Shown here in pieces: positions 19,655-63,186 of a stretch of 64,000 nucleotides of DNA (position 1 is its first letter; every line of letters begins with the position of its first letter). The translations under genes were made by a program, and so were the position numbers. Below the pieces are notes generated by a model that saw nothing but the letters and a program-made list of their open reading frames with translations, was not told the DNA's origin and made no database searches. The DNA is from Parcubacteria group bacterium (GTDB lineage: Bacteria; Patescibacteriota; Minisyncoccia; Moranbacterales; UBA11712), in NCBI GenBank assembly GCA_041659685.1, contig JBAZXV010000004.1:70355-134354 (forward strand). Direction: 5' to 3'.

Positions 19655-19674
19655 GTTTCTAAGATGAGTATATT

Positions 19675-20220: not shown

Positions 20221-20227
20221 ATCTCAA

Positions 20228-20334
20228 ATTTCAAAGCCACAGCTCAAAGCTCAAAATTATGATTTTGAATTTTAAGTTGTAGTTTTGAGTTTTGAATTTT
20301 GCGCTTTGAGTTTTTTTAGGGTTATCTTAAGTAT
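20228..20334. repeat. Tandem CTCAAA(N) repeats forming a ~45-bp imperfect inverted repeat in a divergent promoter region
   Basis: CTCAAAACTCAAATCTCAAATTTCAAAGCCACAGCTCAAAGCTCAAAATT … AATTTTAAGTTGTAGTTTTGAGTTTTGAATTTTGCGCTTTGAGTTT. Confidence 0.5.
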
Positions 20335-30618: not shown

Positions 30619-30692
30619 AGCGGGGTAGAGCAGTCCGGTAGCTCGGGTGGCTCATAACCACCAGGTCGTGGGTTCAAATCCCACCCCCGCAA
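30619..30692 (+). tRNA. tRNA-Met (anticodon CAT) with an unpaired A1·A72
   Basis: Cloverleaf: acceptor GCGGGG/CCCCGC, U8, D-stem GAGC/GCTC, anticodon loop CTCATAA, T-loop TTCAAAT, discriminator A; no encoded CCA. Confidence 0.8.
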
Positions 30693-30797
30693 CAAGCGTC
30701 CGCAAATAATAACGAAGCACGAAAGTGCTAATGTTTTTATTTGATATAATTTAGAACCTCCTATACAATACTAAGCGAAAACATAACGGAGTGCTCT

Positions 30798-30908
30798 ATG
30801 GCTAAATCAAAAAAGAGAATAGAGGCGCGCAATCTAAGGAAAAAAGGCTTAAGTATAAGAGAAATTGCTGAAAAAATTGAAGTGTCCAAAAGCTCGGTAA
30901 GTATTTAG
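30798..30908 (+). CDS. Helix-turn-helix DNA-binding ORF (36 aa), ended by a TAG that is in frame with the downstream 171-aa ORF
   Basis: MAKSKKRIEARNLRKKGLSIREIAEKIEVSKSSVSI*. A TGATATAAT -10 element and a GGAG SD lie upstream. Confidence 0.4.
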   Translation: MAKSKKRIEARNLRKKGLSIREIAEKIEVSKSSVSI

Positions 30909-30959
30909 TGCGCAGATATTGAGTTAACGAAAGGACAGGCCGAAAAGCTTCACGAACAA

Positions 30960-31475
30960 ATGGTCAAGGGCGGATATTTGGGACGGCTCAAGGGCGCGCG
31001 TATTCAAAAAGAAAATAAGCGACGGAAGATAAGGTATTTTTCCGAAAGGGGAAAACGCGATATTAAGCAGATAAAAAAACGAGAGTTATTTATCGCCGGA
31101 CTCGCTTTATACTGGGGTGAAGGAAGTAAAAAAGATCCGAGAGTAAGGTTTTATAACTCCGATCCGGAGATTGTCAGGTTCATAATGAAATGGTTCAGAA
31201 ATATTTTGAATGTTGCGGAAGATAGATTTATAATGTATGTCACAATAAACAGGATTCACAATGATAGGCTGGATGATGTGAATAAATACTGGTCTGAAAA
31301 AACCAACATATCGATCGGGCAATTCAGAAAACCTATTCTCATAAAAGCAAAAAATGAAAAGATTTACGATAATCATTTTCAACACTACGGAACTCTGTGC
31401 GTAAGGATTGCAAAAAGTTCAAGTTTATTCTATCAAATCATGGGTTGGCTGGAGGCTCTTGGCAAAACGAAGTAA
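30960..31475 (+). CDS. Putative LAGLIDADG-type homing-endonuclease-like protein (single-motif, 171 aa)
   Basis: …ELFIAGLALYWGEGSKKDPRVRFYNSDPEIVRFIMKWF… resembles the LAGLIDADG helix plus β-hairpin/helix core, and the size matches I-CreI-like enzymes. It is in the same frame as the upstream HTH ORF. Confidence 0.4.
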   Translation: MVKGGYLGRLKGARIQKENKRRKIRYFSERGKRDIKQIKKRELFIAGLALYWGEGSKKDPRVRFYNSDPEIVRFIMKWFRNILNVAEDRFIMYVTINRIHNDRLDDVNKYWSEKTNISIGQFRKPILIKAKNEKIYDNHFQHYGTLCVRIAKSSSLFYQIMGWLEALGKTK

Positions 31476-31482
31476 AAATTTT

Positions 31483-31556
31483 GGCAGGGTAGCTCAGCCG
31501 GTTAGAGCGCGGGTATCATAAACCTGAGGTCGCGAGTTCGAGTCTCGCCCCTGCTA
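31483..31556 (+). tRNA. tRNA with anticodon CAT (second CAU tRNA: Ile2/lysidine-type or Met)
   Basis: Acceptor GGCAGGG/CCCTGCT (G1·U72), D-stem GCTC/GAGC, anticodon loop ATCATAA, T-loop TTCGAGT, discriminator A. Confidence 0.75.
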
Positions 31557-31581
31557 CAAATACAAAAATTGAAGAATGTGA

Positions 31582-33046: not shown

Positions 33047-34045
33047 ATGAATCTCTCAAAAATTGAGGAAATTTTCAAAAATGAGCCGGCTTTTCGCCTC
33101 GCGCAAGCGCGCAAGGCGGTTTTTCATGATTTGATTAAAGACTGGAACGAGGCGACGACGCTTTCGAAAAATATCCGTGAAAAACTGCAAAAAGTTGCGC
33201 CTCTCGAAATCAAAGGCGAAATGTTTTCTTCAAAAGACGGCCGCACGGTGAAGGCGGCGATGAAACTCGAAGACGGACTCACCGTTGAAACGGTGCTCAT
33301 GAAACACACCGGCAAGCGCAATACGATTTGCGTTTCTTCGCAGGTTGGCTGTCCGTTGGGATGTTTGTTTTGTGTGACGGGTTCCATGGGATTCAAAAGA
33401 AATCTCACCGCATCCGAAATTCTCGATCAGGTACTGTTTTTTGCGCGAAAACTAAAAAATACTGATGAGAAGATAACCAACATCGTTTTCATGGGCATGG
33501 GCGAGCCCTTTCTCAATTGGGAAAACGTGAAAAAAGCCGTTGAAATTCTGAATGATCCGAATTCCTTCGGCATCGGAGCGCGAAAAATTTCTGTTTCAAC
33601 GGCCGGCATCACAGAGGGTATTGAAAAATTGGCCGAGGAATTTCCGCAAAGCAATTTGGCCATTTCGCTCCATGCGCCGGATGATTTGCTCCGCTCGGAG
33701 ATCATGCCGGTGAACAAAAAATATCCGCTTCAAAAAATATTCAAGGCAGTGGATGAGTATATCGCCAAAACCAACCGCAAAGTCATGTTTGAATATGTCA
33801 TGCTGAGTGGCGTGAATGATTCCGAAAAGCAGGCCGAAGAACTGGCGAAATTACTAAAAAAACCTTTATATATGCTTAATCTCATTGCCTATAACCCGAA
33901 TGGAAAATTTGAATCGTCCTCGCCCGAGAAAATCCTGAAATTCAAAAATATTTTGGAAAAAGCCGGAATTTTCACCACTCAAAGATACCGCTTCGGGACG
34001 GACATTGAAGCGGCTTGCGGGCAGTTGGCCCACAGAAAGAGATAG
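33047..34045 (+). CDS. rlmN: 23S rRNA (A2503-C2) / tRNA methyltransferase RlmN (radical SAM)
   Basis: CVSSQVGCPLGCLFCVTG (CxxxCxxC) and RlmN-family context (…GMGEPFLNWENV…, …C-terminal …EAACGQL). Confidence 0.85.
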   Translation: MNLSKIEEIFKNEPAFRLAQARKAVFHDLIKDWNEATTLSKNIREKLQKVAPLEIKGEMFSSKDGRTVKAAMKLEDGLTVETVLMKHTGKRNTICVSSQVGCPLGCLFCVTGSMGFKRNLTASEILDQVLFFARKLKNTDEKITNIVFMGMGEPFLNWENVKKAVEILNDPNSFGIGARKISVSTAGITEGIEKLAEEFPQSNLAISLHAPDDLLRSEIMPVNKKYPLQKIFKAVDEYIAKTNRKVMFEYVMLSGVNDSEKQAEELAKLLKKPLYMLNLIAYNPNGKFESSSPEKILKFKNILEKAGIFTTQRYRFGTDIEAACGQLAHRKR

Positions 34046-34112
34046 TCTATTCGAAAGAATCGAAAAAGAACCCGTCGAACGGGCTCTTTTTGCTATTCAT
34101 TATATTCCAAGC

Positions 34113-34511
34113 TTACTCTGTCGTTTTTCCGTCGAACTCATCCGTTTTATCGTTCATGGCGTCCTCTTTTGTGGCGTGGACGACTCCGTCCCGGTGTTCA
34201 GGCGGGGAATAAACTGTATAAAGCCTCATCGGAGAATCAAGCGAGGTATTGATGATGTTGTGCTTTGTTCCGGCCGGAATGACAATTGCGAAATCATCTT
34301 CAATTTCGTGATCTATATCATCAAGAACGGCTTTTCCTTTCCCTTCCTCTATCCTGATGAACTGATCGAGCGCGTGCGTTTCTTCGCCGATTTCTTCATT
34401 GGGCTTGAGAGTCATCACCACTAGCTGGCTGTTTTTGGCTGTATAAAGAACTTTTCGGAAATTCTCGTTTTCCCTGGTTTCTTTTTCTATGTTGGCGACA
34501 TAGCCTTTCAT
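34113..34511 (-). CDS. Cupin-domain protein
   Basis: 132 aa; …PNEEIGEETHALDQFIRIEEGKGKAVLDD…VIPAGTKHNI… two-motif cupin pattern. Confidence 0.6.
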   Translation of the reverse strand: MKGYVANIEKETRENENFRKVLYTAKNSQLVVMTLKPNEEIGEETHALDQFIRIEEGKGKAVLDDIDHEIEDDFAIVIPAGTKHNIINTSLDSPMRLYTVYSPPEHRDGVVHATKEDAMNDKTDEFDGKTTE

Positions 34512-34644: not shown

Positions 34645-35250
34645 TTGTTTGATATGATTAAAGCCATTATATTCGATCTCTCGGAAGTATATTTGCGCGG
34701 CCTTTTGGGGACGCACGAAATATTGACAAAGAGGCTCAAGAAAAAAATTGAATCAACGGAACTTCTCACTAAGGATACAAAAAAATTTTTCGAGGGGAAG
34801 ATGACGGAAGATGAATTTTGGCGGACTCTTCGAAACAAGAGCAAATGGGATATCCGGGTGAAAGAGCTCAAAAAAATAGTCCGCATGAATTTCGGCGAAA
34901 TCGAGGGAACTCGGGAAATTATCGAAAAACTTAAGAAAAGGGGATACAAGCTTGGATTATTGTCGGTGCACACCAGGGAATGGGTTGCGCATTGTGAAAA
35001 AAGGTTTGATTACCACAGGCTTTTTCATTCAATAATGTATTCTTTCGAAGCGGCTGTCTGCAAGCCGGAAAGAAAAGCCTATGAGCTCATACTTGAGAAA
35101 ATAAATTCCGAGCCCGGGGACTGTCTTTTTATCGACGATAATCTGGAAAATCTCGTAGCGGCGGAAAAATTAGGGATAAAAACCATTCATTTCAAATCAG
35201 CCGTCCAGCTGAAAAGAGATTTAAAGAAGATGGGCGTAAAAATCAAGTAA
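34645..35250 (+). CDS. HAD-superfamily hydrolase
   Basis: Motif I IIFDLSEV and motifs III/IV …FIDDNLENL…. Confidence 0.65.
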   Translation: MFDMIKAIIFDLSEVYLRGLLGTHEILTKRLKKKIESTELLTKDTKKFFEGKMTEDEFWRTLRNKSKWDIRVKELKKIVRMNFGEIEGTREIIEKLKKRGYKLGLLSVHTREWVAHCEKRFDYHRLFHSIMYSFEAAVCKPERKAYELILEKINSEPGDCLFIDDNLENLVAAEKLGIKTIHFKSAVQLKRDLKKMGVKIK

Positions 35251-36524: not shown

Positions 36525-37955
36525 ATGGAGGATCAATCTCATTCCGGGAAGGACAGGAACATAATAAAAATAATAAAGAGGTATCTTACCCTTAAAATAA
36601 CATTAGCCATTATTCTGGCAGTGGCGATCACAGGAACCGCTTTTCTTTTTTTGTATGCCAAAAATCACAAGGGGATGATCGGAGTGAAAGCGCTTTCGGC
36701 CATAAGTTCGATTTCCAAATTCCTGCCGATTCCTCAAGACGAACAGAAGGAAATTGATGTGCTTAACGAACTGGTCGGAGAATTTTCGAAAAACGACGAC
36801 AAAGAGAGGGTTTTTCTCGTTCTCCTTCAGAATAATATGGAATTGCGCCCCGGAGGGGGATTCCTCGGCCAGTATGCCGTCATAAAGATAAAAAACAGAG
36901 AGGTGACATCAACATTTCTTGAAGATGCCAACCTGCTTGACCGGAGAATTACCGCCAAGGTTGCTCCCCCTTATCCGCTGAAGCGAATGATGCAAATAAA
37001 GAGATGGAAGTTCAGGGACTCGAATTTTTCGCCTGATTTTCCGGCCAACGCCGAAAAGGCCAAATATTTTCTTGGTCTTGGCGGGCAAGCCGGAAAATTC
37101 GACGGCGTGATTGCCGTTAATGCCCAGGTCTTCAATGATATACTTGCAATTACCGGGCCTGTTTCCGTCCCCGGCTATTCCCAGACATTTACCGGTTCAG
37201 ACGGAGCCTTGAAGCTTGAAGAACTGGTGGAGAAGCAATATATTATTGATCCGGAGCTCGACACTGAGAATCGGAAAATGATAATGAAAAAAATGGCGCC
37301 CATAATAATTTCCAAATTGACCGCTCTCAATAATATTCCCAAAATTGCTAATTTTGTTCACTCCGAATTCAAAAATAGGAATATCATGGTTAATTTCGAA
37401 GATTCAAATCTCCAGTCGCTTGCCGAAAGCGTTCATTGGGACGGAAGCGTGGCGGATGACTGGGGATCGGACTATTTGATGACGGTTGACGCCAACATGG
37501 GATCCCTGAAGACTGATTATTATATTAAACGGGAAATCTCCTACGATGTTGATTTTACGGCGCAAAAACCGATTGTGACTCTTCATATCCTGTATAAAAA
37601 TACGGCATCTCAGGCTGACTGGCGCACGAGCGATTATCATACTTATCTTCGCGTTTATGCGCCGGAAGGATCAAATCTTCTTGAAAAGAAGATGGCATCC
37701 AGTCTGACTGACGGAAACGAGTTCGGGAAAAAATATTTCGGTTTCATTGTGCATGCCACGATTGCGAATCAGACTGACGTGATGATAAAATATGAACTGC
37801 CGGAGCAGCTAAACAATGCTGATTACCGCCTGCTCATTCAGAAGCAATCCGGAGCCGGGGATGTGCCGGTCAAGGTTCATTTGAAAACGGAAAACGGGGA
37901 ATTTAACCAGGAGCAGACACTGAGCAGTGATCTGAAATTCCAGTTTGAGAATTAG
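36525..37955 (+). CDS. Membrane-anchored DUF4012-like protein
   Basis: N-terminal TM, then …NNMELRPGGGFLGQYAV…, which resembles the DUF4012 core motif. Confidence 0.5.
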   Translation: MEDQSHSGKDRNIIKIIKRYLTLKITLAIILAVAITGTAFLFLYAKNHKGMIGVKALSAISSISKFLPIPQDEQKEIDVLNELVGEFSKNDDKERVFLVLLQNNMELRPGGGFLGQYAVIKIKNREVTSTFLEDANLLDRRITAKVAPPYPLKRMMQIKRWKFRDSNFSPDFPANAEKAKYFLGLGGQAGKFDGVIAVNAQVFNDILAITGPVSVPGYSQTFTGSDGALKLEELVEKQYIIDPELDTENRKMIMKKMAPIIISKLTALNNIPKIANFVHSEFKNRNIMVNFEDSNLQSLAESVHWDGSVADDWGSDYLMTVDANMGSLKTDYYIKREISYDVDFTAQKPIVTLHILYKNTASQADWRTSDYHTYLRVYAPEGSNLLEKKMASSLTDGNEFGKKYFGFIVHATIANQTDVMIKYELPEQLNNADYRLLIQKQSGAGDVPVKVHLKTENGEFNQEQTLSSDLKFQFEN

Positions 37956-38107
37956 CGCGGTGAAGATTCGGAAGAGAAAGAATAATAAGTTATCCAGAAC
38001 AATATTTATCCCCCTCTGCAGAAAACCATGAGCGTAAACTCGGGGAGCTCCATATTCAAAACAGCCGGATCCGGCTGGCTTATCGCGCAGATCAGCCGCC
38101 GGGTTTT

Positions 38108-38136
38108 TTGATTTTTTCTTCCGGAGACAGTATATT
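38108..38136 (+). promoter_or_regulatory. Consensus promoter TTGATT-N17-TATATT (family member 1), upstream of the patatin gene
   Basis: TTGATTttttcttccggagacagTATATTTTAG; shares an extended AGTATATTTTA block with three other sites. Confidence 0.5.
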
Positions 38137-38209
38137 TTAGTTAGGGAAGTGAAATTTTTCTGACTTAAAAAATCGGAAAAAATAAAAAATACAGCGAGGA
38201 GGACATTCG

Positions 38210-39031
38210 GTGACAAAAGCTCTGGTGGTTGGTTCGGGCGCTATGTTCGGCGCCTACGGCGCCGGAGTTACTGCCGAATTGGGCAGGCAATTGGGATCAG
38301 AATACTTTGATTCCATATATGCATCTTCAGTTGGTGTGTATGCCGCTTCTTTTTTTGCGGCCGGCCAGCATGAAGTTTGCGAGGAAACGTGGCGGCGGCA
38401 TGTTAACGGGCGAAAGCTCATCAATTTGTTTCGAATTCGGAACGCTTTGAAACTTCACTATCTCGAAAAGATCTTCCAGGACAGACGTTCTTTTTTGGAT
38501 ATTGATGCGTTATTTTGTTCCCGGGTCCGGCTCACTTATGTCTTAACGCGTTTGCAGGACGGAAAAGCTGTCTATCATATGCCGACTCATGCAAATATTT
38601 TTCGGTGCATGACAGCCTCTGCGGCGACGCCAATTCTCCACGGCGCCGTCAGGATTGGCAACGAAATGTTTTTTGACGGAGCTTTTAGCGATCCGCTTCC
38701 CGTCAAAAAGGCCCTTGAAGACGGTGCCGAACTGGTTGTTGCGGTCAGTAACAAACAGCAGGGATTCCGTATCGCAAGATCCTTTCAGGTGCTGGGGATC
38801 ATATGCAGAATCATATCAAAAACGGTATCCCGGCTCGTATGCGACTTTGAGGCTCTTGTGCGCGAAACGGAAGAGGCCTTGAATGATCCGCGCGTGATAG
38901 TTATTCGTCCATCGGCAGACCTGCCTCTCAGGAGCACGATCGACACCGACCGACGGCGTCTTAACGAAACCATTGATCTGGGTATCAAAGATGCCCGGTC
39001 AGCCCTTGAATTCATCAGAAATCACAAATAA
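38210..39031 (+). CDS. Patatin-like phospholipase
   Basis: Oxyanion Gly-rich loop (VVGSGAMFGAYGAGV), GxSxG-like nucleophile (YASSVG) and catalytic Asp (FFDGAF). Confidence 0.75.
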   Translation: MTKALVVGSGAMFGAYGAGVTAELGRQLGSEYFDSIYASSVGVYAASFFAAGQHEVCEETWRRHVNGRKLINLFRIRNALKLHYLEKIFQDRRSFLDIDALFCSRVRLTYVLTRLQDGKAVYHMPTHANIFRCMTASAATPILHGAVRIGNEMFFDGAFSDPLPVKKALEDGAELVVAVSNKQQGFRIARSFQVLGIICRIISKTVSRLVCDFEALVRETEEALNDPRVIVIRPSADLPLRSTIDTDRRRLNETIDLGIKDARSALEFIRNHK

Positions 39032-39165
39032 AGGACCCGGCTTTGCGCCCGGTCCTTTAAAAAAATCACTTAGACACCGAGTGTCTAAGTAGCGGCCAAT
39101 CGCCATTTGAAAAGCGGGCGGTGCTTGGAATCCTTGAGGATTCTTCGCAACGCGCCCGCTTTGAG
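39029..39165. terminator. Cluster of three strong hairpins between convergent genes, including a nested stem-in-stem element
   Basis: Hairpin 1 is AAAGGACCCGG…CCGGTCCTTT plus an A/T run; hairpin 2 is CTTAGACAC-CGA-GTGTCTAAG; hairpin 3 is AAAGCGGGCG…[GGAATCC-TTGA-GGATTC]…CGCCCGCTTT. Confidence 0.45.
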
Positions 39166-39178
39166 TTTAAGGTCGCTG

Positions 39179-39727
39179 TCAGACGGCTGATTTCGGCACC
39201 TCAGTCAGTCGGACCAATTGCTTGACAAAATCAACCTCATAAACCTGCCCCTCCGCAGACTTTAATTCCTTAATGAGTCCGGCATCCTTGAGGAGGTGAT
39301 TCGTGAATTCGCCACCGCCGAAGACAAGCAGCACTCGGGCAAGCTTAGAATCCGCAATTTTCAGCAACTCCCATAAATGAATCCAGGGGCTGAAGCATGT
39401 GGATTTGGTCAGTCCCAGGTACTCATTTCCCTGAACAAAGTCGCCCGAGGCGAGAATGCGGTCTTTGCTGTTCTTCAGGTTTGCGTCGGGAGCGCCAAGG
39501 AAGAGGGACGCCGTTCTGGTGATTCCCCCGGTGGTTCCGTAAAGATGCTCCTGGAAAAATTTGTAGACGGACAGGAATCTTTGACCGGTCCCATGGGCGA
39601 TGTGCACAAATTTAGTGCCGATGATGATGCGAAGCGGCACCAGTATCTCCCCAAGACGCTTCATGCCCTCTTCCGTCAAACCCGGGTCACCCTTCTCATA
39701 AAATCTGTCGGGGTGGGTGATAACCAA
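39179..39727 (-). CDS. Hypothetical protein; divergent histidine-phosphatase-fold-like paralogue of the 48180 gene
   Basis: LTEEGMKRLGEIL and VLLVFGGGEFTNHLL align with LSESGKKQAKELGK and VAIVAHQAPQLALDVLL of the 48180-48728 protein. The canonical RHG motif is absent. Confidence 0.3.
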   Translation of the reverse strand: MVITHPDRFYEKGDPGLTEEGMKRLGEILVPLRIIIGTKFVHIAHGTGQRFLSVYKFFQEHLYGTTGGITRTASLFLGAPDANLKNSKDRILASGDFVQGNEYLGLTKSTCFSPWIHLWELLKIADSKLARVLLVFGGGEFTNHLLKDAGLIKELKSAEGQVYEVDFVKQLVRLTEVPKSAV

Positions 39728-39883
39728 AACTAGCGGCAGTCCACGTTCTTTATATGATTTCCTTCAAAACTTGTTTCCTCCTTAAATTTACTAAAATATT
39801 GAAAAAGGTGCACTTTCGGGCACGATTGCCCTAAGCTTTATATTTTATCATATTTAAGATGATATGTCAATGACAACGTAATG

Positions 39884-39912
39884 TTGATTTATTCGCTTGA
39901 AAATAGTATATT
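39884..39912 (+). promoter_or_regulatory. Consensus promoter TTGATT-N17-TATATT (family member 2)
   Basis: TTGATTtattcgcttgaaaatagTATATTTTA; ~100 nt upstream of the 40011 gene. Confidence 0.5.
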
Positions 39913-40010
39913 TTAAATAGATGCAGGACGAGGTTGAATCTATGCCGAAGAAGTATTGCATGGTAATATGAGATTAAGTAAGATTCTTTTAATTTATTAA
40001 CAAAAAAACA

Positions 40011-40661
40011 ATGGAGGAAAAACAAAAAGGCCAATCCGGGCAAAAACCGGCTGAGCAAACTCCGGCAGGGCAACAGCCCCAAAAGAGCAGTAGCAGCAAC
40101 GTGATAGTAATCGTCATAGTGGTTATTGTCGTTTTTGGAATTGTAGCGCTTGCCGGCGGCTATTTCGTAGTGCGCAGCTTTAAAGCGAAGGTGTCCCAAA
40201 AGATCGGAGAAAATGTTATGGAAAAAATGATTGAAAAAGGCACGGGCCAAAAAGCAGACGTAAGCTCTGACGGAAAATCAGTCAGTGTTGAAACCGACTC
40301 GGGAACATTTTCCGCTTCCGATGAGGGCACCATCAAATTGCCGTCCGATTTTCCTTCCGATGTGTTTGTTTATGGAGATGCAAAAATAACCTTTGCCACT
40401 TCCACAGTGGCCAATCCGGCGGACGGGACCAAGGCCAGTTACATGATTGGATATATGGTGAATCAAAGCGTGAGCGACGCAGTGAATAAATACAGAAAGG
40501 AGATGGCCAAAAACGGCTGGATAAAGGAAACAGAGGCCGACTACGGAGCAATGATGATAAGCTTCAAAAAAGGCGATAGGGAAGCTTTGGTTACGATTTC
40601 CGAAAATCAGGACGGCCAAAAAGGCACAACGGGAGTTTCCTTGTCTGTTTCGGAAAATTAA
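40011..40661 (+). CDS. Membrane-anchored hypothetical protein (Q/P-rich N-terminus, single TM, extracytoplasmic domain)
   Basis: A hydrophobic stretch (NVIVIVIVVIVVFGIVALAGGYFVV) followed by a Ser/Thr-rich domain. Confidence 0.5.
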   Translation: MEEKQKGQSGQKPAEQTPAGQQPQKSSSSNVIVIVIVVIVVFGIVALAGGYFVVRSFKAKVSQKIGENVMEKMIEKGTGQKADVSSDGKSVSVETDSGTFSASDEGTIKLPSDFPSDVFVYGDAKITFATSTVANPADGTKASYMIGYMVNQSVSDAVNKYRKEMAKNGWIKETEADYGAMMISFKKGDREALVTISENQDGQKGTTGVSLSVSEN

Positions 40662-40744
40662 TTTCTGCCAATTCCAATCCCGCTTTTTAGGGAACAAATA
40701 AAAAATCACAACGAAAGGGCTGGGCAATGCGCCGGCCTTTTTTG

Positions 40745-40773
40745 TTGATTTTTCGGCCTGGAAATAGTATATT
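40745..40773 (+). promoter_or_regulatory. Consensus promoter TTGATT-N17-TATATT (family member 3)
   Basis: TTGATTtttcggcctggaaatagTATATTTTAG. A terminator-like hairpin lies just upstream (~40716-40745). Confidence 0.45.
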
Positions 40774-41053
40774 TTAGGTATAAATACGTATTTTGTTACG
40801 TAGCGCCGCGAAGCATAATTCAGCATTTTCCCACGGCCGTGTAATTTTGCTAAATTGTAAAACATCAAGTTAAAAGCTGTTTTCTGCTCGGTATTGGACG
40901 CTGACGGGAAACGCGTCCAAATCGTCCCCGGCAAATCCGTGGCGGAGGTTGAAGGGAGGATGTCTTAGGTTCCTTATTCACAAAAAAAATTCCTCCAATC
41001 CAGTTGTCTGGATAACTGGATAATCCGCTAAAATCCCGCCGGTAATAATCAAT

Positions 41054-41728
41054 GTGCAAACAATTATGAAAACATATCTCAAAGATTTTGAAAAAATGGC
41101 GAAGAGGGAGATTGCGTATATTCCTCTCGGCACTTTGGAATGGCACGGGAATCATCTGCCGATTGAAACGGATTATCTCGTCGCGGTGAAATTATGCGAG
41201 GGATTGGCAAAGAAGAAACCCGGTTATATTCTTCCGCCGATATATCTCGGAACGGATAAGCATAAATTTGTCAAAGGGCAAAAGTTTGTCGGCATGGATC
41301 GGCATCTTGGGAAAAAACTGCCCGGCAATTTATATTATCTAGAGCCAGCCCTTTTTGAAAAAATGCTGACGGGGCTCGTGAAAAATCTCATTGTTCACGG
41401 ATTCAAGAGAATATACGGCATCGCAGCCCACACCGGTGGCGGACAAATGGCGGCGCTCGCCAGAGTCGCGAAGAAGATTCCAGAGCTCAAAATCATAAAT
41501 CCTTGGGAAAATATTAGCATCGATATGCAGCACGCTGAAGAAAACGAAACTTCTGTTTTTTGGGCCTGCTATCCCGAAGAGGAAAAAATAAGCCGAAAAA
41601 TGAAAATTCCTCTCTCGGACGATTGTTTCCGATTTTACGGCCGCGATGTGCGGAGGAGAGCGTCGTTAAAGCTAGGAAAAAAAATGCTAAACGAAGCGTT
41701 GAGAGATTGTTTGGAGGAAATAAAATAA
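41054..41728 (+). CDS. Creatininase-family amidohydrolase
   Basis: …IAYIPLGTLEWHGNHLPIETD… matches the creatininase-family metal-binding motif. Confidence 0.7.
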   Translation: MQTIMKTYLKDFEKMAKREIAYIPLGTLEWHGNHLPIETDYLVAVKLCEGLAKKKPGYILPPIYLGTDKHKFVKGQKFVGMDRHLGKKLPGNLYYLEPALFEKMLTGLVKNLIVHGFKRIYGIAAHTGGGQMAALARVAKKIPELKIINPWENISIDMQHAEENETSVFWACYPEEEKISRKMKIPLSDDCFRFYGRDVRRRASLKLGKKMLNEALRDCLEEIK

Positions 41729-41746
41729 ATAATTCGGAATTATATA

Positions 41747-42241
41747 ATGTCAAAGCTGAATATCGTTGATGAAGACGACAACGTAATCGGAATAGAAGAT
41801 CGCAAAAAAGCGAAAAAAGAGAGCTTCTATCGCGTTTCGGCCCTTTGGGTCACCAATTCGCGCGGGGAAATTTTGCTCGCTCGCCGGCATCGAAGCAAAA
41901 CGCACGATCCTTTGAAATGGGGTCCGGCGGTTTCGGGGACTGTCGAAGCGGGGGAAAGTTATGAAGAAAATATTTTGAAAGAAGCGGAAGAAGAATTGGG
42001 TCTCAAGAATATCCATCCAAAAATCGGGCCGAAAATAAAAATGGAAGTTGAATATCATTATTTTGTCCAGTGGTTCACTTTGGGGATTGAAAAGGATGCC
42101 AGCGATTTCGAGATACAAGAAGACGAAGTCGTAGAGATTAAATGGTTTCCAAAAAAAGATTTAATTTCTGAATTGCAAAACAGTTCTGAAAACTTCACGC
42201 CGGGATTGCGCGCGGTCAGTAAATTATTTTTAGGGGAATAA
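41747..42241 (+). CDS. NUDIX hydrolase
   Basis: Nudix box GPAVSGTVEAGESYEENILKEAEEELGL. Confidence 0.8.
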   Translation: MSKLNIVDEDDNVIGIEDRKKAKKESFYRVSALWVTNSRGEILLARRHRSKTHDPLKWGPAVSGTVEAGESYEENILKEAEEELGLKNIHPKIGPKIKMEVEYHYFVQWFTLGIEKDASDFEIQEDEVVEIKWFPKKDLISELQNSSENFTPGLRAVSKLFLGE

Positions 42242-42246
42242 ATTTT

Positions 42247-43176
42247 ATGGCCACTATCGAAGATTCCGAAAAATTGAATGCTCGAAAAAAATCGCCCGAT
42301 GAGTTGCATCAGGAAAGAGTGAGATCGCCAAAATCGAGAGAACAAACAGGAAAACCTGAACCGTGGTCTGAGGCGGCGCTTGGAGCGGGAAAAATAACCG
42401 AGTCGCAACTCGAAATATATAATTTTGTCTATGACGAGCATGTAAAAATCAGTTTTCTCTTGCACGGGGACGCCGATCAAAGGCAAATGGACGACCGGGC
42501 GCTTCTCCGGCAGATATATACGCGGGCGGCGAAAAAATTTGGCGTCAGCGAAAAGGAGGCTGAAATGATATTTCTTCGACTTGAAAATTTTCGGGTGGAT
42601 TACCGTCCGCCGGTTCATAATGATTTCAGTCCGGAAGCGATCGAGCGCAATATGCCGAGGTATCTTGGATACTACCGGGAATGCAAAGAAGGTTTGATTA
42701 TCGGAGCGGCAATGAATAGAAACTATGCAGTATCATGGCGTCAGGAGCCATTCCAAGTGGGTTGCACAGCTTTGACGCTTGATGCCGACTTTCCTGACGA
42801 TCAGCCGGTGATTCACTACGGGGCGAATTTCAAGCCGACCAAGGATTGGACCAAGTATCATGAAAAACATTGCGCGGAGAGACACGCTATCGAAAGCGCG
42901 CTTGCGTATGACGTGAAATTGATTATTGCAATTGTAATCGTCTCAAGAGAACACGATAAAGGAGACGATGAAAACAAGCCGTCAGAAGTATTGCATTCAT
43001 GCCTCGCGTGCCGCAGAATGTATCGGGATTTACTGAAACGCGGTCTTTTGCGCGAGGATAGTATGATTTGTTTTGTGAATGATTCAGAAGTTGATGAGGA
43101 AGGCAAGCCGACGAAGATTCAGGAAATGACCGTCAAAGAACTTTTGGACTTATATAAAGACGATCCGGAAGATTAG
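42247..43176 (+). CDS. Protein with a C-terminal cytidine/deoxycytidylate-deaminase-fold zinc-binding domain (HAE…SCxxC) and a ~130-aa uncharacterised N-terminal region
   Basis: …HCAERHAIESA… (H-[AC]-E) and …LHSCLACRRM… (CxxC) are separated by ~45 aa, as in the CDA fold. Confidence 0.55.
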   Translation: MATIEDSEKLNARKKSPDELHQERVRSPKSREQTGKPEPWSEAALGAGKITESQLEIYNFVYDEHVKISFLLHGDADQRQMDDRALLRQIYTRAAKKFGVSEKEAEMIFLRLENFRVDYRPPVHNDFSPEAIERNMPRYLGYYRECKEGLIIGAAMNRNYAVSWRQEPFQVGCTALTLDADFPDDQPVIHYGANFKPTKDWTKYHEKHCAERHAIESALAYDVKLIIAIVIVSREHDKGDDENKPSEVLHSCLACRRMYRDLLKRGLLREDSMICFVNDSEVDEEGKPTKIQEMTVKELLDLYKDDPED

Positions 43177-43256
43177 GCGCGGAAGCAAGTGAAGGTTTTT
43201 AGGAATCGTAATGTTAGATAGAAAAGATTAAAGCCCCATCCATTCAGACGGGGCTT

Positions 43257-44447
43257 TTATTTACTTCCTTTCCTTGTAGCCGCAAAAGCAAAGCCTGCGA
43301 CAAGAAGCAGAAAAATGCCATTAGTACTCAGTGCCATAGAGCAACCGAAATTACTGGCCAAGCTTCCCATGGCAAAATGTCCCAGGGCCGTTCCTCCGTT
43401 TGTGGCCGCGATGAGTATTCCCGAAACCCTGCCTCGCATTTCCTGTCCGACTATTATTTGAATCAATATTTTTGCCGTCAGGGAACTGATTGCGAATCCC
43501 GCCCCGGACAAAAACAAGAGCCCGAAGCCGCTAATCAAACTGGGAACCAGCATGGGTAACAGGAAAAGAGAGATTCCGGCAAAAAAAGAACCGCCGGCGA
43601 TAAGGCACGGACTTAATTCTTTTTTAAGGACCAAAAAGGAGCCGACTCCAGACCCCAATCCCACGAAAGCAAAGAGCCATCCAAGCGTGCCGGGACCCGC
43701 GTTAAGCAGATCAACGGAAAAATTCGGCAGGATCGGCCGATAGGCAAATCCCGCTACAGCGATTAAAGCAGACAAAATCAGGTAAAGCCGGGTTTTTGGT
43801 TCGGTGGCCGAATATTTCATTCCGGACCAAAACATTTCAAACGGATTTGCGACCAAGGATCTTCGGCTTCTTTTCGCGATAATCATCGGCAAGGTGGCAA
43901 TAACTGCCAGAAAGGAGACGCCGTTGATCACAAATATCCAGCCGATGCCCGTAAAAGTTAATAAGAATCCGGCTATACCGGGTCCGATTACCTTTGCCAT
44001 CTGGCCAATGATGTTTGATATCGTCATTGCTGACTTGATTCGGCAGTTTCCGACTATTTCCGGAATAAATGCCATTCTGGCGGGTCTGTCAATAGCACTG
44101 GCGACTCCCAGAAAAAAAGCCAAAATGACAATGATCGGCAACGATGCTTTTTCTGTGATTACCAAAAATCCGAGCAGAAAAGCCTGGATCATTTGGGCTG
44201 ATTGGGTAATATACAAAATGTTCTTTTTCTTGAATTTATCCGCGATTATTCCCCCTAAACAAACCAGAAATGCGCTTGTTATCAGGGGGAGGCCGGATAC
44301 GATTCCCACCCAGAAAGATGAATGGGTTATCTTGAGAACCAGCCAGGTTAAGGCAACATATTGCAGCCATGATCCCGTGAAGGAAATGGCTTGGCCGGTC
44401 AGAAAAAGACGAAAATTCCGCGTGGCTATTTTTTTGTCCAAGAACAT
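43257..44447 (-). CDS. MFS transporter
   Basis: 396 aa, 12 predicted TM, MFS-like loop motifs. Confidence 0.75.
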   Translation of the reverse strand: MFLDKKIATRNFRLFLTGQAISFTGSWLQYVALTWLVLKITHSSFWVGIVSGLPLITSAFLVCLGGIIADKFKKKNILYITQSAQMIQAFLLGFLVITEKASLPIIVILAFFLGVASAIDRPARMAFIPEIVGNCRIKSAMTISNIIGQMAKVIGPGIAGFLLTFTGIGWIFVINGVSFLAVIATLPMIIAKRSRRSLVANPFEMFWSGMKYSATEPKTRLYLILSALIAVAGFAYRPILPNFSVDLLNAGPGTLGWLFAFVGLGSGVGSFLVLKKELSPCLIAGGSFFAGISLFLLPMLVPSLISGFGLLFLSGAGFAISSLTAKILIQIIVGQEMRGRVSGILIAATNGGTALGHFAMGSLASNFGCSMALSTNGIFLLLVAGFAFAATRKGSK

Positions 44448-44517
44448 TTCCTCCTTATGATATTTCCGGCATTTTTACCGGATACTATATGCTATATTAC
44501 AGTCCGTCTTGCGTCAA

Positions 44518-44546
44518 TTCTGCCGCATTGATTTTTCTCATTGAAA
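44518..44546 (+). promoter_or_regulatory. Consensus promoter TTGATT-N17-TATATT (family member 4), upstream of the csaA-like gene
   Basis: TTGATTtttctcattgaaaatagTATATTTAAC. Confidence 0.5.
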
Positions 44547-44566
44547 ATAGTATATTTAACTTATAA

Positions 44567-44914
44567 ATGCACAAAACTATGGCAACTATTGAAGATTTTC
44601 ACAAGATGGACATTAGGGTTGGGAAAATCATTGAAGTCGAGGATTTTCCGGAAGCCCGAAAACCGATGTATAAGATCACGATCGATTTCGGCTCGGAGAT
44701 TGGCGTAAAAAAATCGTCGGTCCAGCTGGTTACGCTCTATAAAAAAGAAGAGCTCATGGGCAAAGTTATTTTGGGCGTCGTTAATTTCCCGCCCCGCCAA
44801 ATTGGTCCGTTTCTTTCCGAAGTCCTCACCCTCGGCGTCCCGGACAAGGAAGACAATTGCGTCCTCATTGTCCCCGAAAAAGACACGGCGGAAATCGGCG
44901 GGAGGTTATTTTAA
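44567..44914 (+). CDS. tRNA-binding protein (CsaA/Trbp111-like OB-fold domain)
   Basis: …DIRVGKIIEVEDFPEARKPMYKITIDFGSE…; the start may be the ATG at 44579. Confidence 0.75.
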   Translation: MHKTMATIEDFHKMDIRVGKIIEVEDFPEARKPMYKITIDFGSEIGVKKSSVQLVTLYKKEELMGKVILGVVNFPPRQIGPFLSEVLTLGVPDKEDNCVLIVPEKDTAEIGGRLF

Positions 44915-44918
44915 GTGA

Positions 44919-45482
44919 TTGAACAAACTCATGCAAAGATTAAGTATTGTTAACGAAAATGACGAAGTGGTCGGAGAGGAGACTCGCGAAAATATCCACA
45001 AAAAAGGGCTGCTTCACAGGGAAGTCCATGTCTGGGTCTATAATAACAAGGAAGAGCTGCTTTTTCAGGAAAGGTCTATGATTAAGGATACCTATCCGGG
45101 GCTGTTTGATGTTTCTGTCGGCAGTCATGTTGAGATCGGTGAGGAATACGAAAGGACTGCATTAAGGGAGTTGGAGGAGGAAACTGGAATAAAGGCGAGG
45201 AAAAATGATCTGACTTTTATTGCGAGCATAAGAGGAAACATTATTGATGAACTCACTGGAATGAAAAATAACTCAATAAAAAAGATATATGCTTTTCGTT
45301 TTGACGGGAACGTGGAAGATTTAAAGGTTGAAGACGGAGAAGCGGTGAGTCTAAGATTTTTTCCAATAGAAAGGATTTTGAATTTATCGGAAGAGGAGAG
45401 CAAAAAATTTACACCTGAAATGATGAGCGAAGAATTTAGGGATGTTTTCAGAAAAATAAAGTTATTGGCGCTGAAAAAATAA
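44919..45482 (+). CDS. NUDIX hydrolase
   Basis: Nudix box …SVGSHVEIGEEYERTALRELEEETGI…. Confidence 0.8.
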   Translation: MNKLMQRLSIVNENDEVVGEETRENIHKKGLLHREVHVWVYNNKEELLFQERSMIKDTYPGLFDVSVGSHVEIGEEYERTALRELEEETGIKARKNDLTFIASIRGNIIDELTGMKNNSIKKIYAFRFDGNVEDLKVEDGEAVSLRFFPIERILNLSEEESKKFTPEMMSEEFRDVFRKIKLLALKK

Positions 45483-45486
45483 AGTT

Positions 45487-46083
45487 ATGAATTTTTCCAA
45501 GGAAATATACCAAAAAATTTGGGATGCGGCGTTGCCATATCAAGATAAAAGGGATGACGCGGGACATGCGGAGATTGTTACAAATTTCGCTCTGAAACTT
45601 TGCAAAATAGAAGACGTGAATGAGGAAATTGTTATTCCCGCGGCTATTTTGCATGACATCGGTTGGAGCCAGCTATCTGACAAAGAAAGATTCGTTATAT
45701 TTTATAAAAAAGCCACAAAAGAAGAGATGCTGCATATCCGCCTTCGTCACCAAGAAGAAGGAGTGAAATTGGCTAAAAAAATATTGGAAGATGTTGGTTA
45801 TACTTCGGGATCAATTCGGAAAATAGTTGAAATAATTTCCGAGCATGATACGCGTAAAGTATTTTTGTCCAAGGAAGATGGAATCATGAGAGACGCGGAC
45901 AAATTATGGTGTTTTAGCAAATTGGGTCTTGGCGCTGACCATAGGAGAAGGAAAGAAGGATTTTCTTCCTATTTCAAACAATTGAAGGAAAATATTGATA
46001 ACAGATCATTTTTCTTTTCCGAATCAGCAAGGAAAATAGCACGGAAGGAAATTGAAATAAATAAAAAAGGACTTGGTTTTTAA
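45487..46083 (+). CDS. HD-domain phosphohydrolase
   Basis: …ILHDIGW…EHD…; HD motifs. Confidence 0.7.
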   Translation: MNFSKEIYQKIWDAALPYQDKRDDAGHAEIVTNFALKLCKIEDVNEEIVIPAAILHDIGWSQLSDKERFVIFYKKATKEEMLHIRLRHQEEGVKLAKKILEDVGYTSGSIRKIVEIISEHDTRKVFLSKEDGIMRDADKLWCFSKLGLGADHRRRKEGFSSYFKQLKENIDNRSFFFSESARKIARKEIEINKKGLGF

Positions 46084-46095
46084 ATTTATGGCAAT

Positions 46096-46179
46096 ATGAG
46101 TGAAAAAATATTTTTCCAAAATTCAAACGGCGTGAAACTTTATTGCAATCTTGAAAAATTCTGGACTGAATGTGCATGA
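46096..46179 (+). pseudogene. 27-codon fragment duplicating the N-terminus of the alpha/beta-hydrolase gene at 47383
   Basis: MSEKIFFQNSNGVKLYCN… against MHQKIFFQNSNGLKLCGV…. The ~30-nt core TTCCAAAATTCAAACGGC(G/C)TGAAACTT is near-identical. Confidence 0.55.
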
Positions 46180-46249
46180 TCATGAGACTATTAGTTTTGG
46201 AAGAGTAATTTTCGCACAATAAGTTGATAATTAAAATATTTGTTGTTTT

Positions 46250-47380
46250 ATGGTGCATATTGAACGTCCAACATTTCTAGCGGATCAGGCAGAGATTGAG
46301 AATGAAAGATTGGCAGACGGACAGCAAGTGAAAGTTGTCGAACTCTCAAGTGTCAGTCAAGTAACTGCAGAAAAAGTTCCGAACGGTTATGTTCTCAAGC
46401 AATACAAATGGCCGGAATTTGATATGTCCTGGACGGATATTTTTGAGGGCGACGATCTGATTAATCCGTATACCCATCGAACGGCGAAAGCATACGAAAG
46501 ATTGAAAAAATCCGGTCCGCAAGAAGATGAACCCCTAACTAAAGATATAATCAAAGCTGTTCAGGAGCAGTATGAAAAAGAAGATTCCATATCATCCTCC
46601 AGGGATAACGAAAAATTTGAAAAAGAGCAGCCGGATCGACACGCCTATCTCTTGCAAATGAGAGAAAAATTACAAAACCCGGAATATGTGGCAAAGGCGG
46701 TCGAAGCCTGGAGATTTCCAAATATAGCCAAAAGGTTGCATAAAAGGAATAAAGGGTTGCAACAATTTTTTAGCTCTCACGGATTGCCAGATCTGATTGT
46801 TCCGACAAATATTGTTGTGGGAGCGGAAAGGAACGAGATTGATGAAAGCAGAGACGGACCGAAACATTTATATGAAATCCAGCCCAGAATTAATTCATTG
46901 GCTTTGCCTGAGTCAGTATTGAATGGAGCTTACGTTGTCTATCACGGCGCAAACATCGGCATGCTTTATTTTAGGGCTTTAAGCCCGGATCAATTGAAGA
47001 AGCAAATTGAAATTCAGAGCTCAGAACTCTCGGAATATCTCAGCAGAAGTTTGTCTTTGGAACAACTTAATAAAATAAGAAATGAAATTAGCAATCTTAT
47101 AAATGCTGCCAAACAACTTCCGCTTGAGATCGGAAAAATTCCTTATGATATTTTGATGCTAAAAAATATTCTAATTACTAAAAACGGGCTAAGGATTATC
47201 GACACGAATCGGTTGATTGCTTTTCCGGAAGGGGATATTGTGGATTGGATGCAAGAAACGGTAGTGCCCGGTGATAATATTTCTGATTTTGATTTATCTC
47301 AAACCAAAATGGCTTGTTTGCAAAATTATCAGCGAATGGTGGATTTTTGGGAGCATATAAAAATAAAGATCGAAAATTGA
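46250..47380 (+). CDS. Hypothetical protein with a protein-kinase-like (APH/Kdo-kinase-like) C-terminal catalytic-loop pattern
   Basis: …YDILMLKNILITKNGLRIIDTN… resembles the D-x4-N catalytic loop plus a downstream Asp. Flanked by duplicated hydrolase-gene sequence. Confidence 0.35.
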   Translation: MVHIERPTFLADQAEIENERLADGQQVKVVELSSVSQVTAEKVPNGYVLKQYKWPEFDMSWTDIFEGDDLINPYTHRTAKAYERLKKSGPQEDEPLTKDIIKAVQEQYEKEDSISSSRDNEKFEKEQPDRHAYLLQMREKLQNPEYVAKAVEAWRFPNIAKRLHKRNKGLQQFFSSHGLPDLIVPTNIVVGAERNEIDESRDGPKHLYEIQPRINSLALPESVLNGAYVVYHGANIGMLYFRALSPDQLKKQIEIQSSELSEYLSRSLSLEQLNKIRNEISNLINAAKQLPLEIGKIPYDILMLKNILITKNGLRIIDTNRLIAFPEGDIVDWMQETVVPGDNISDFDLSQTKMACLQNYQRMVDFWEHIKIKIEN

Positions 47381-58240: not shown

Positions 58241-58291
58241 ATTATGAAGTAGGAATTAGGAATTATGTATTCCAAATTGCATAATTCGTAA

Positions 58292-60367
<2,076 letters not shown>

Positions 60368-62576: not shown

Positions 62577-62580
62577 TTTT

Positions 62581-62662
62581 CGCATAACGCATAACGCGAA
62601 ACGCGACTCGCAAAAGGAAAAAAATTCCAGTTGAGTGTCGAGTTACGAGTTGCGGGTGTCGT
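62581..62662 (+). repeat. CATAACGC-family imperfect hairpin repeat, copy 3 (between nusG and rplK)
   Basis: CGCATAACGCATAACGCGAAACGCGACTCGC … GAGTGTCGAGTTACGAGTTGCGGGTGTCGTA. Confidence 0.45.
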
Positions 62663-62668
62663 AAAAAA

Positions 62669-63091: not shown

Positions 63092-63100
63092 TATTTTTTG

Positions 63101-63180
63101 ATTTAAGAAATAAGATTTATGATTTATGAATCGATTTCTTCCTGAATTTCTTAAATCTTAAATCGTAAATCATAAATCGG
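63101..63180 (+). promoter_or_regulatory. Structured rplA leader with two overlapping, mutually exclusive or pseudoknotted helices (candidate L1 autoregulatory site)
   Basis: GATTTAAGAAAT (63101-63112) is complementary to ATTTCTTAAATC (63147-63158). GATTTATGATTTATG (≈63114-63128) is complementary to CGTAAATCATAAATC (≈63164-63178). Confidence 0.4.
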
Positions 63181-63186
63181 AATAAA

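Follow-up and report, generated by a model that had tools for sequence, protein, structure and literature searches.

The locus examined here raises the question of why one promoter-like sequence recurs before several different genes. It may be the ordinary housekeeping promoter of the organism, the mark of a shared regulon, or a cassette spread by recombination. The DNA belongs to the metagenome-assembled genome (MAG) of an uncultured, Moranbacteria-like member of the Parcubacteria, within the candidate phyla radiation (CPR).

Four copies of one module

An exact pattern search of the window, by which we mean the whole 64-kb stretch of DNA analysed, with TTGATTT-N14-AGTATATTT (geometrically TTGATT, a 17-nt spacer and TATATT) returned four matches, all on the + strand, at 38108-38137, 39884-39913, 40745-40774 and 44528-44557. 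Dinucleotide-preserving shuffles (n=100) gave a mean of 0.21 matches at two or fewer mismatches, and none held four. These results bear out the four repeated promoter-like sites reported in the first-pass annotation, with TTGATT, a 17-nt spacer and TATATT at 4/4, and its naming of the downstream genes (patatin, a membrane-anchored protein that belongs to the AF_1845 family, creatininase family and csaA-like). Several details of that description required amendment: its N16 formula has no match, the true gap being N14; the fourth site, placed at 44518-44546, lies at 44528-44556 and reads AGTATATTTAAC, not AGTATATTTTA; the spacer ends needed correction at site 3, whose spacer ends GGAAATAG; and the label "consensus" was too generous for promoters with only 9/12 matches to TTGACA/TATAAT. 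The sequence that it described as a further, -10-only copy near 19664 does exist (GAGTATATTTTAG at 19666-19678), but we rejected it as a promoter since it has no -35 element and overlaps the stop codon of a minus-strand ORF (19675-20220). A sixth occurrence of AGTATATTT, at 34686, was rejected as lying within a HAD-hydrolase ORF (34645-35250).

Each of the four copies is intergenic, lies 5' of a + strand gene and shares its orientation, and the genes so headed (patatin, AF_1845, creatininase, tRNA_bind) are not paralogous. Pairwise identity among the copies is 26-33/41 (63-80%), and their likeness spans ~41 nt with a sharp onset at TTGATTT between flanks that are not alignable; copies 3 and 4 additionally have a downstream TATAAAT in common. 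Copy 1 (38108-38148, +) carries its -35 TTGATT at 38108-38113 and, after the 17-nt spacer, its -10 TATATT at 38131-38136, with a predicted start A at 38143. It lies 5' of a patatin-like phospholipase gene (38210-39031, +; PF01734) that begins with GTG after GAGGAGG and whose ortholog in the related lineage L181 is likewise preceded by a module copy. Copy 2 (39884-39924, +; -35 at 39884-39889, -10 at 39907-39912, predicted start A at 39919) lies 5' of the AF_1845-family gene (40011-40661, +; 216 aa), which is identified by a precomputed PF27226 annotation on an identical Logan contig and has orthologs in L056 and L181. Back to back with copy 2 is a canonical divergent promoter candidate, TTGACA-N17-TAAAAT with TG (39842-39870, -; 11/12 matches), which points toward a minus-strand ORF at 39179-39727.

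A terminator-like hairpin and T-run (40713-40742, +) ends directly at copy 3 (40745-40785, +; -35 at 40745-40750, -10 at 40768-40773, predicted start A at 40780). The + strand operon beyond it (41066-43176) comprises the creatininase-family gene (41066-41728), a NUDIX gene (41747-42241) and a 309-aa ORF (42247-43176). In the ~286-nt leader separating copy 3 from the creatininase gene sits a probable remnant of a csaA-like gene, from its 3' end (40891-40989, +; a weak match, E ~3e-4). Copy 4 (44528-44568, +; -35 at 44528-44533, -10 at 44551-44556, predicted start A at 44563) heads a second + strand operon (44579-46083) of a csaA-like tRNA_bind gene (44579-44914), a NUDIX gene (44919-45482) and an HD-domain gene (45487-46083). 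With the csaA ATG at 44579, its leader would be ~16 nt long and lacks a Shine-Dalgarno sequence. Back to back with copy 4 is another divergent promoter candidate, TTGACG-N17-TAGCAT (44489-44517, -), for an MFS transporter gene at 43257-44447.

Relation to ordinary promoters

All four sites have the features of sigma-70 (RpoD) promoters: TTGATT (4/6) and TATATT (5/6) at a spacing of 17 nt, in an intergenic position and co-oriented with a gene. Extended -10 sigma-70 promoters (TGnTATAAT) have been described in E. coli and in Gram-positive bacteria, and the module resembles these in its TTGA-type -35, 17-nt spacing, TAnnnT -10 and predicted start ~7 nt downstream, and in the TG at -15/-14 that is present in 15/15 copies from relatives. 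It differs from them in that the window copies read TA rather than TG (T-A-G-TATATT) and in that its -35 is fixed as TTGATTT rather than TTGACA. Unlike ordinary promoters, it is also conserved across species at both spacer ends and in the three bases after the -10 element.

The remainder of the window provides the comparison with the organism's own promoters. The next-best matches to the motif in 64 kb carry 3-4 mismatches of 16, giving a bimodal mismatch spectrum; a position weight matrix (PWM) scan of the window recovers only the four copies, and by these two scans the module is absent from the other 57 kb. The remaining promoter candidates of the window have a canonical form, pairing TTGACA, TTGACT, TTGACG or TTTACA with TAnnAT (the good ones being TTGACA/TTGACT-N17), and include the tRNA-Met promoter at 30577 and candidates at 26971, 39870 (-), 56457, 61015 and 61650. 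A search of 185,579 species genomes yielded 49 matches, all scattered singletons and within chance expectation. The first-pass annotation had held that its reading would fall if the motif were simply the generic housekeeping promoter of this organism; with TTGACA-type candidates elsewhere and no further match under three mismatches in 64 kb, that scenario is largely refuted. We regard the module as a special conserved promoter class, distinct from the organism's ordinary promoter, because related species carry it, over 35-45 bases, ahead of the same gene families.

Conservation across related lineages

Fifteen further copies, with consensus TTGATTTTTCCGCTTGGAAATGGTAGATTTTAGtTATAAAT, were found in eight related lineages (L052, L055, L056, L057, L071, L181, L182 and L183). 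These relatives were reached via the creatininase gene and their loci were examined over +/-10 kb around it, and the gene content of any "regulon" is therefore biased by sampling. All 15 copies are intergenic, and 14 lie directly 5' of creatininase, NUDIX, patatin, UMPH-1 or radical-SAM genes, the last being an orphan; with the window copies included, 18/19 have a gene directly downstream. In the relatives, either 12 nt or 23-26 nt separate the end of the -10 element from the ATG. Within the +/-10 kb loci the module occurs only from -3.0 to +4.9 kb of the creatininase gene, an 8-kb zone. The order of the cluster's gene families differs in every lineage, and the module copies stand at the heads of units.

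A gapless alignment of the 19 sites has a mean column identity of 72%, with TTG, TTT, the A-run and TA..TT invariant or nearly so. TTGATTT is invariant in 17/19 copies, and TAnnTT with 17-nt spacing is kept in 18/19, the exception being a decayed L183 copy at 9904 (GCGGGT). Information content is 0.9-1.5 bits at each of the spacer and post -10 positions, and a conserved TA lies exactly 7 nt downstream of the -10 element. The conserved block ends sharply at the module edges, and upstream flanks are not alignable across species. Over bases 1-31, copy 3 is identical to the L057-L060 copy at 30/31 positions, while the creatininase proteins are only 72% identical; its spacer variant CGGCCTGG also occurs at the orthologous sites of L057 and L056, and copies 2 and 4 have other spacers. 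The proposal that identity extends beyond the needs of sigma-70 is correct, and it gains strength from the retention of the whole module, spacer included, in relatives with unalignable flanks. The module has what is expected of a regulon site: it is conserved beyond sigma contacts, common to several units and retained in orthologous promoters. The window copies nevertheless have a signature of their own, with TA in 4/4 where 15/15 relatives' copies have TG (Fisher p = 2.6e-4), and they share TATATT where the relatives' -10 hexamers vary.

A possible shared operator or a reused promoter

Our preferred reading, which we hold with about even confidence, takes all four to be functional sigma-70 (RpoD)-type promoters of one conserved module family of ~35-45 nt, specific to a Moranbacteria-like CPR clade and probably including the operator of a shared regulator. 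RNA polymerase holoenzyme would read TTGATT as the -35 and TATATT as the -10 element across the fixed 17-nt spacer, with TGnTAnnTT presumably acting as an extended -10 element in the relatives, and transcription would start at the conserved T/A step 7 nt 3' of the -10 element. Small accessory enzymes (creatininase family, NUDIX, patatin, csaA and AF_1845, and in relatives UMPH-1 and RlmN-like radical-SAM) make up a cluster whose order is locally shuffled, and every copy would head a single transcription unit there. Beyond the sigma contacts, conservation takes in an invariant T-run that follows TTGA, with GRAAAT and TTT flanking the -10 element on its 5' and 3' sides; these bases most likely form the operator of a putative shared regulator, and the units would therefore be co-regulated. 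Promoter activity, start sites and the existence of the regulator are claims that we infer from sequence.

Within the spacer, the T-tract and A-tract form a TTTTC-N5-GRAAA dyad with 93% complementarity in register versus 42-76% when the partner columns are slid. Pairing and covariation of the dyad were no better than in shuffles in either register, and column composition alone explains the complementarity; the dyad could reflect a DNA-shape or composition preference instead of an operator. The module shares with repressor-controlled, spacer-operator regulon promoters a dyad-like conserved spacer element common to several units of a gene cluster, and differs from them in that its dyad is simply a T-tract opposite an A-tract and in that a cognate regulator was not found in the cluster ORFs. 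In none of the lineages examined was a transcription factor or extra sigma gene found within or close to the cluster, and neither the window's cluster ORFs nor those of the relatives contain a helix-turn-helix or regulator domain. Of the two origins first proposed, a regulon with its own transcription factor or alternative sigma factor and a spread promoter cassette, each retains part of its case: finding the module ahead of the same families in many lineages speaks for selection or a regulon, for which neither a regulator nor an alternative sigma gene was found, and the TG-to-TA change common to the four window copies speaks for concerted evolution or reuse. The shared TA is what concerted evolution or recent copying would be expected to leave, and counts against independent selection.

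Promoter reuse without a dedicated regulator is accordingly the strongest alternative, and we consider it possible though doubtful. Here, one good promoter would have been copied locally during shuffling of the variable cluster by duplication, illegitimate or short-homology recombination or gene conversion, its likeness being maintained through concerted evolution and selection for promoter strength. The differing gene-family order with module copies at unit heads, the TA and TATATT common to the window copies, the lack of a regulator gene in the cluster, and the links between copies 3 and 4 (a common TATAAAT, and a csaA-like remnant after copy 3 with csaA apparently driven by copy 4) are all consistent with reuse. 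Such reuse has been described under the name of putative mobile promoters (PMP; Matus-Garcia, Nijveen and van Passel 2012; PMC3575422), which must share 80% identity or more across 50 nt or longer between -150 and -50. As with PMP, highly similar sequences lie upstream of non-homologous genes in one genome with no known mobile element; the module, however, falls short of the PMP identity threshold, at 63-80% over 41 nt that include the -10 element, and its retention before orthologous genes in other species points to selection over recent movement. The CGGCCTGG variant that copy 3 shares with its orthologous sites, but not with copies 2 and 4, spans lineages, and homogenisation would therefore be limited to ~10 nt. 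Furthermore, to explain 30/31 identity across species whose proteins are 72% identical, the spacer must be under purifying selection, of which a plain promoter has no need, and 0/19 copies revert from TTGATTT to the better TTGACA.

A second, dedicated sigma-70-family factor with preferences (TTGATTT; TGnTAnnTTTT) slightly unlike those of the housekeeping sigma is improbable. The prevalence of TTGATTT against TTGACN at the other promoter candidates and the fixed spacing would suit such a factor, but the elements are of group-1 type (TTGA.., TGnTA...T) and unlike the consensus patterns of ECF, sigma-28, sigma-54 and sigma-H, strong conservation inside the spacer is atypical of recognition by sigma only, and Pfam annotations of ~200 kb of Moranbacteria DNA contain no sigma gene. 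A non-promoter role, as recombination or attachment sites, miniature mobile elements or a structured RNA/DNA element, is very improbable. Although the copies stand at junctions of shuffled gene units and the spacer has dyad symmetry, strict orientation and the regular distance to the start codon in relatives fit a promoter. The module resembles Correia elements, ERIC and REPIN as a repeated intergenic sequence able to supply neighbouring genes with promoters, yet differs in its ~41-nt length, in lacking terminal inverted repeats or a hairpin, and in occurring as four copies in a single orientation within 6.5 kb. We rejected a MITE, REP or Correia-like element for lack of terminal inverted repeats, a hairpin or flanking target duplication (flanking homology is also absent), and a structured hairpin for lack of compensatory changes and of a matching Rfam family. 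Scarcely credible is a generic housekeeping promoter, which the sigma-70 geometry and similarly shaped promoter-like sequences in other Patescibacteria (L016, L024, L033) would allow, and against which stand the window scans, the TTGACA-type tRNA and other promoter candidates, the confinement of the relatives' modules to the 8-kb zone and the chance-level matches elsewhere.

A bolder and rather unlikely extension of the shared-operator reading is that the module may be a portable "promoter plus junction" unit with which these CPR bacteria, whose genomes are tiny, shuffle and independently express accessory enzyme genes in a dedicated variable region between the rlmN-like gene and gyrB, and that it may also be the operator for what would be the first CPR-specific regulon to be defined. 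If true, that regulon might serve host-dependent nucleotide and lipid scavenging (NUDIX, HD, HAD, UMPH-1, patatin), and a putative regulator co-evolving with the module would explain the change from TG to TA in all four copies of this lineage.

To our knowledge, Moranbacteria have not been grown in pure culture, and our literature search found no published description of their promoters or regulons. A sharply delimited promoter module conserved across species offers a concrete, testable handle on both: it predicts four start sites and co-regulated units of poorly understood hydrolases, may act as DNA bait for finding a regulator, and flags a hypervariable stretch of accessory genes in Moranbacteria genomes. 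Should it prove to be only a reused promoter, it would still illustrate cleanly how a promoter is reused, with concerted evolution, where the genome is reduced.

A promoter-like module and its setting in the window

Sequence reading combined with pattern searches confirmed a real promoter-like module, with solid statistical support and conservation across lineages. The exact pattern TTGATTT-N14-AGTATATTT occurs four times in the window, at 38108, 39884, 40745 and 44528 (copies 1 to 4), on the plus strand only, compared with a mean of 0.21 matches at up to two mismatches in 100 dinucleotide-preserving shuffles, none of which reached four. The first-pass annotation, which had proposed four near-identical consensus promoters, is borne out in substance and corrected in detail: its N16 formula returns no match, N14 being correct, and its fourth coordinate fell 10 nt too far left, the true site ending in TTTAAC rather than TTTTA. 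Every copy combines TTGATT, a 17-nt spacer and TATATT. The similar stretch spans about 41 nt, with pairwise identities of 26-33/41, and its onset is abrupt at TTGATTT, with flanks that lack homology. The mismatch spectrum across the 64-kb window is bimodal, with four sites at zero and all others at no fewer than 3-4 of 16, and a PWM built from all family members recovers the same four sites and no others. The sequence that the annotation had listed as a further, -10-only copy is present, at 19667, but it runs across the stop codon of an ORF on the minus strand and does not stand as a promoter; a -10-only match at 34686 was likewise rejected as a promoter because it falls within the ORF of a HAD hydrolase.

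The four copies lie between genes, in the orientation of the next gene, and head respectively a patatin gene (38210), a gene for an AF_1845-family protein (40011), a unit of creatininase-family, NUDIX and 309-aa ORFs (41066-43176) and a unit of csaA-like, NUDIX and HD-domain genes (44579-46083). Copy 1 comes after a GC-rich stretch that closes with a T-run, and a terminator-like hairpin immediately precedes copy 3. Copies 2 and 4 stand back to back with canonical candidate promoters on the minus strand (39870, TTGACA-17-TAAAAT; 44517, TTGACG-17-TAGCAT). No riboswitch or leader RNA was found in the 5' leaders of the copies. Judged from their sequence and setting, the four sites are very probably genuine promoters; that they are something else altogether we hold to be highly improbable.

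Several neighbouring features were recorded alongside. The copy 2 leader contains a small upstream ORF (MPKKYCMVI and stop, 39943-39972) with a GAGG ribosome-binding site, and the AF_1845 gene itself has an A-rich leader that lacks a Shine-Dalgarno sequence and is conserved in the related contig L056. Two plus-strand ORFs, 39377-39733 and 34005-34424, were set aside as antisense artefacts opposite a 182-aa minus-strand ORF (39179-39727) and a minus-strand Cupin_2 gene (34113-34511), respectively; one of the two is called as a gene on the Logan contig from SRR18595301, which matches window 37519-47101 at 100% identity, and the other gave tblastn matches. The 182-aa ORF has a near-consensus candidate promoter on one side (39870-39842) and a terminator-like site on the other (39091-39067). 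The window creatininase-family protein shares 100% identity with a Parcubacteria group bacterium MAG protein, its next relatives being Candidatus Moranbacteria, which assigns the window to a candidate phyla radiation (CPR) bacterium. An exact-protein look-up of the patatin returned no record.

Module copies in related lineages and a shuffled cluster

Contigs of relatives (L-numbered), chosen by creatininase homologues at 60-85% identity, yielded 15 further module copies in eight lineages. In L057-60, at 72% protein identity, the module precedes a NUDIX-creatininase unit and agrees with window copy 3 in 30/31 positions over bases 1-31. Copies precede the creatininase gene in L055, a radical-SAM gene in L071, and both kinds of gene in L056; L181 has four (before creatininase 1, NUDIX, patatin and creatininase 2), L052 has one before a radical-SAM gene and one before a UMPH-1-creatininase unit, L183 has one before UMPH-1 and a decayed one before creatininase, and L182 has one before creatininase and one orphan. 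The module was not found in L184, a lineage at 50% identity. All 15 copies are intergenic and all but the orphan are co-oriented with the next gene; the orphan (L182 9299-9340) sits between two minus-strand genes with no plausible downstream ORF, and may be a relic or the driver of an antisense or short RNA.

The 19 sites, four from the window and 15 from relatives, align gaplessly to the consensus TTGATTTTTCCGCTTGGAAATGGTAGATTTTAGtTATAAAT with a mean column identity of 72%, and the DNA upstream of the module is unalignable between lineages. In relatives the distance from the end of the -10 element to the ATG is 12 nt or 23-26 nt, leaving near-leaderless or short leaders, mostly devoid of a Shine-Dalgarno sequence, and a conserved TA lies exactly 7 nt past the -10 element, at the expected start position. 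The idea of a further, overlapping promoter built on the downstream TATAAW was rejected, as its -35 would be TTGRAA with a 15-nt spacer and the ATG would be too close in several relatives; the conserved TA in this region is better read as the start site. Within loci of +/-10 kb, every module falls in the zone from -3.0 to +4.9 kb around the creatininase gene. Extension past the window in the same genome reached only a 2.4-kb contig. Strain variants (L050, L051-54 and L057-60) are 99.9-100% identical, so polymorphism provides no gauge of constraint.

Gene order within the cluster differs in every lineage, with module copies heading units drawn from shuffled families: creatininase, two NUDIX types, the 309-aa ORF, patatin, AF_1845, UbiA, radical SAM, csaA, HAD, UMPH-1 and cupin. 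Within the 286-nt leader between copy 3 and creatininase, window 40891-40989 encodes VLDADGKRVQIVPGKSVAEVEGRMS and a stop, which resembles the csaA C-terminus (46% over 24 aa against the window csaA; tblastx E = 2.4e-4 against the L055 csaA) and is probably a gene remnant, left by decay of a csaA-like gene at its 3' end. Of the window copies, 3 and 4 form the closest pair (33/41), and an intact csaA follows copy 4. Together, the remnant, the intact gene and this top similarity point to a past duplication of module and csaA.

Conservation beyond sigma-70 needs and a probable concerted change

The proposal that identity exceeds what sigma-70 requires holds across the 19-site family. TTGATTT is retained in 17/19 copies, with reversion to the better TTGACA in 0/19; both spacer ends (TTTTC...GRAAAT) and the TTT just past the -10 element are conserved, and positions beyond sigma contacts carry ~0.9-1.5 bits each. 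The spacer dyad TTTTC-N5-GRAAA, a T-tract facing an A-tract, is 93% complementary in register compared with 42-76% when partner columns are slid. No covariation beyond shuffles was found in either register, and a hairpin or cruciform is therefore rejected; the pattern is what one would expect of a palindrome bound by a protein, or of a simple preference in DNA shape. We consider the chances evenly balanced that the module is a promoter with an embedded operator for a putative shared regulator, under which the units would be co-regulated.

The extended -10 TG is present in 15/15 relatives' copies and in 0/4 window copies (Fisher p = 2.6e-4), all four of which read TA and then G-TATATT-T. The -10 hexamers of the relatives vary (TAGATT, TAGGTT, TATATT, TAACTT, TAAGTT, TAGGCT and a decayed GCGGGT). 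Canonical promoter candidates of the window still use TG, so the housekeeping sigma is presumably unchanged and the four window copies would have changed in concert. Copying or gene conversion could account for this, as could co-evolution with a factor that recognises the TG/TA position. An account by local reuse of a promoter and concerted evolution, in which no dedicated regulator takes part, is possible but less probable; the copy 3 spacer variant CGGCCTGG, common to the orthologous copies in L057 and L056, argues against wholesale recent replacement. That a dedicated second sigma factor reads the module is unlikely. The module would work as sigma-70 promoters do, the relatives' copies being of the extended -10 type. 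A search of the cluster turned up neither a regulator gene nor a sigma gene in any of the lineages examined.

Ordinary promoters, wider searches and known systems

Apart from the module, the strongest candidate promoters of the 64-kb window are of canonical type, among them TTGACA-17-TACTAT at 30577 before tRNA-Met, TTGACA-16-TATGAT at 26971, TTTACA-17-TATAAT with TG at 56457, TTGACT-17-TACTAT at 61015 and TTGACA-17-TAATAT at 61650. Because promoter candidates elsewhere are canonical and the window holds only four module sites, as the bimodal mismatches and the PWM also indicate, the scenario of a generic housekeeping promoter, which the first-pass annotation had named as fatal to its proposal, fails, and we regard it as exceedingly improbable.

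A strict 19-base window-type pattern, which demanded AGTATATTT and was blind to the relatives' TG-type copies, gave 49 scattered single matches, within chance expectation, in a 185,579-species genome collection that does not include the window's species. A metagenome scan with a degenerate pattern gave at least 120 matches, the bulk of them unrelated promoters rich in A and T, plus a repeat from the human gut; among the matches listed, L071 was the only relative. Promoter-like sites of the same architecture in other Patescibacteria contigs (L016 ~3430-3462, minus; L173 4545, plus; L033 359-388, minus; L024 7419-7448, minus) are within the scan's chance expectation. A Yanofskybacteria site lies 12 nt before a HAD-hydrolase ATG, its metagenomic counterpart having TG where the genome has TA, and a Moraniibacteriota MAG site lies 24 nt before a glycosyltransferase ATG.

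Elsewhere in the window, many intergenic spacers are long imperfect hairpins, some inside ribosomal-protein operons (5655-5753, 8667-8738, 20225-20330, 58241-58318, 62577-62668 and 63092-63186), with arms of short tandem repeats (for example CATAACG CATAACG ... CGTTACG AGCTATG AGTTACG) and RNA folding z-scores of -2.5 to -5.9 against shuffles. At 30619-31557, two distinct tRNA-Met genes (83% identical) stand either side of a split ORF, comprising a 36-aa helix-turn-helix-like fragment (30798-30908) and a 171-aa ORF (30960-31475) that contains LYWGEGSK, a LAGLIDADG-like motif; it may be a decayed homing endonuclease inserted there.

The putative mobile promoters described by Matus-Garcia, Nijveen and van Passel (PMC3575422) are similar to the module, yet it falls short of their operational threshold (identity of 80% or more along 50 nt or more), and it shows none of the traits of miniature mobile elements or Rfam families. 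In the library searched, the single paper naming both Moranbacteria and promoters deals with a different topic, and the top-ranked Patescibacteria/CPR papers contained no relevant account. Read from sequence, the module is a putative lineage-specific promoter or regulon motif, of moderate interest as a feature of an uncultured CPR lineage that yields specific, testable predictions.
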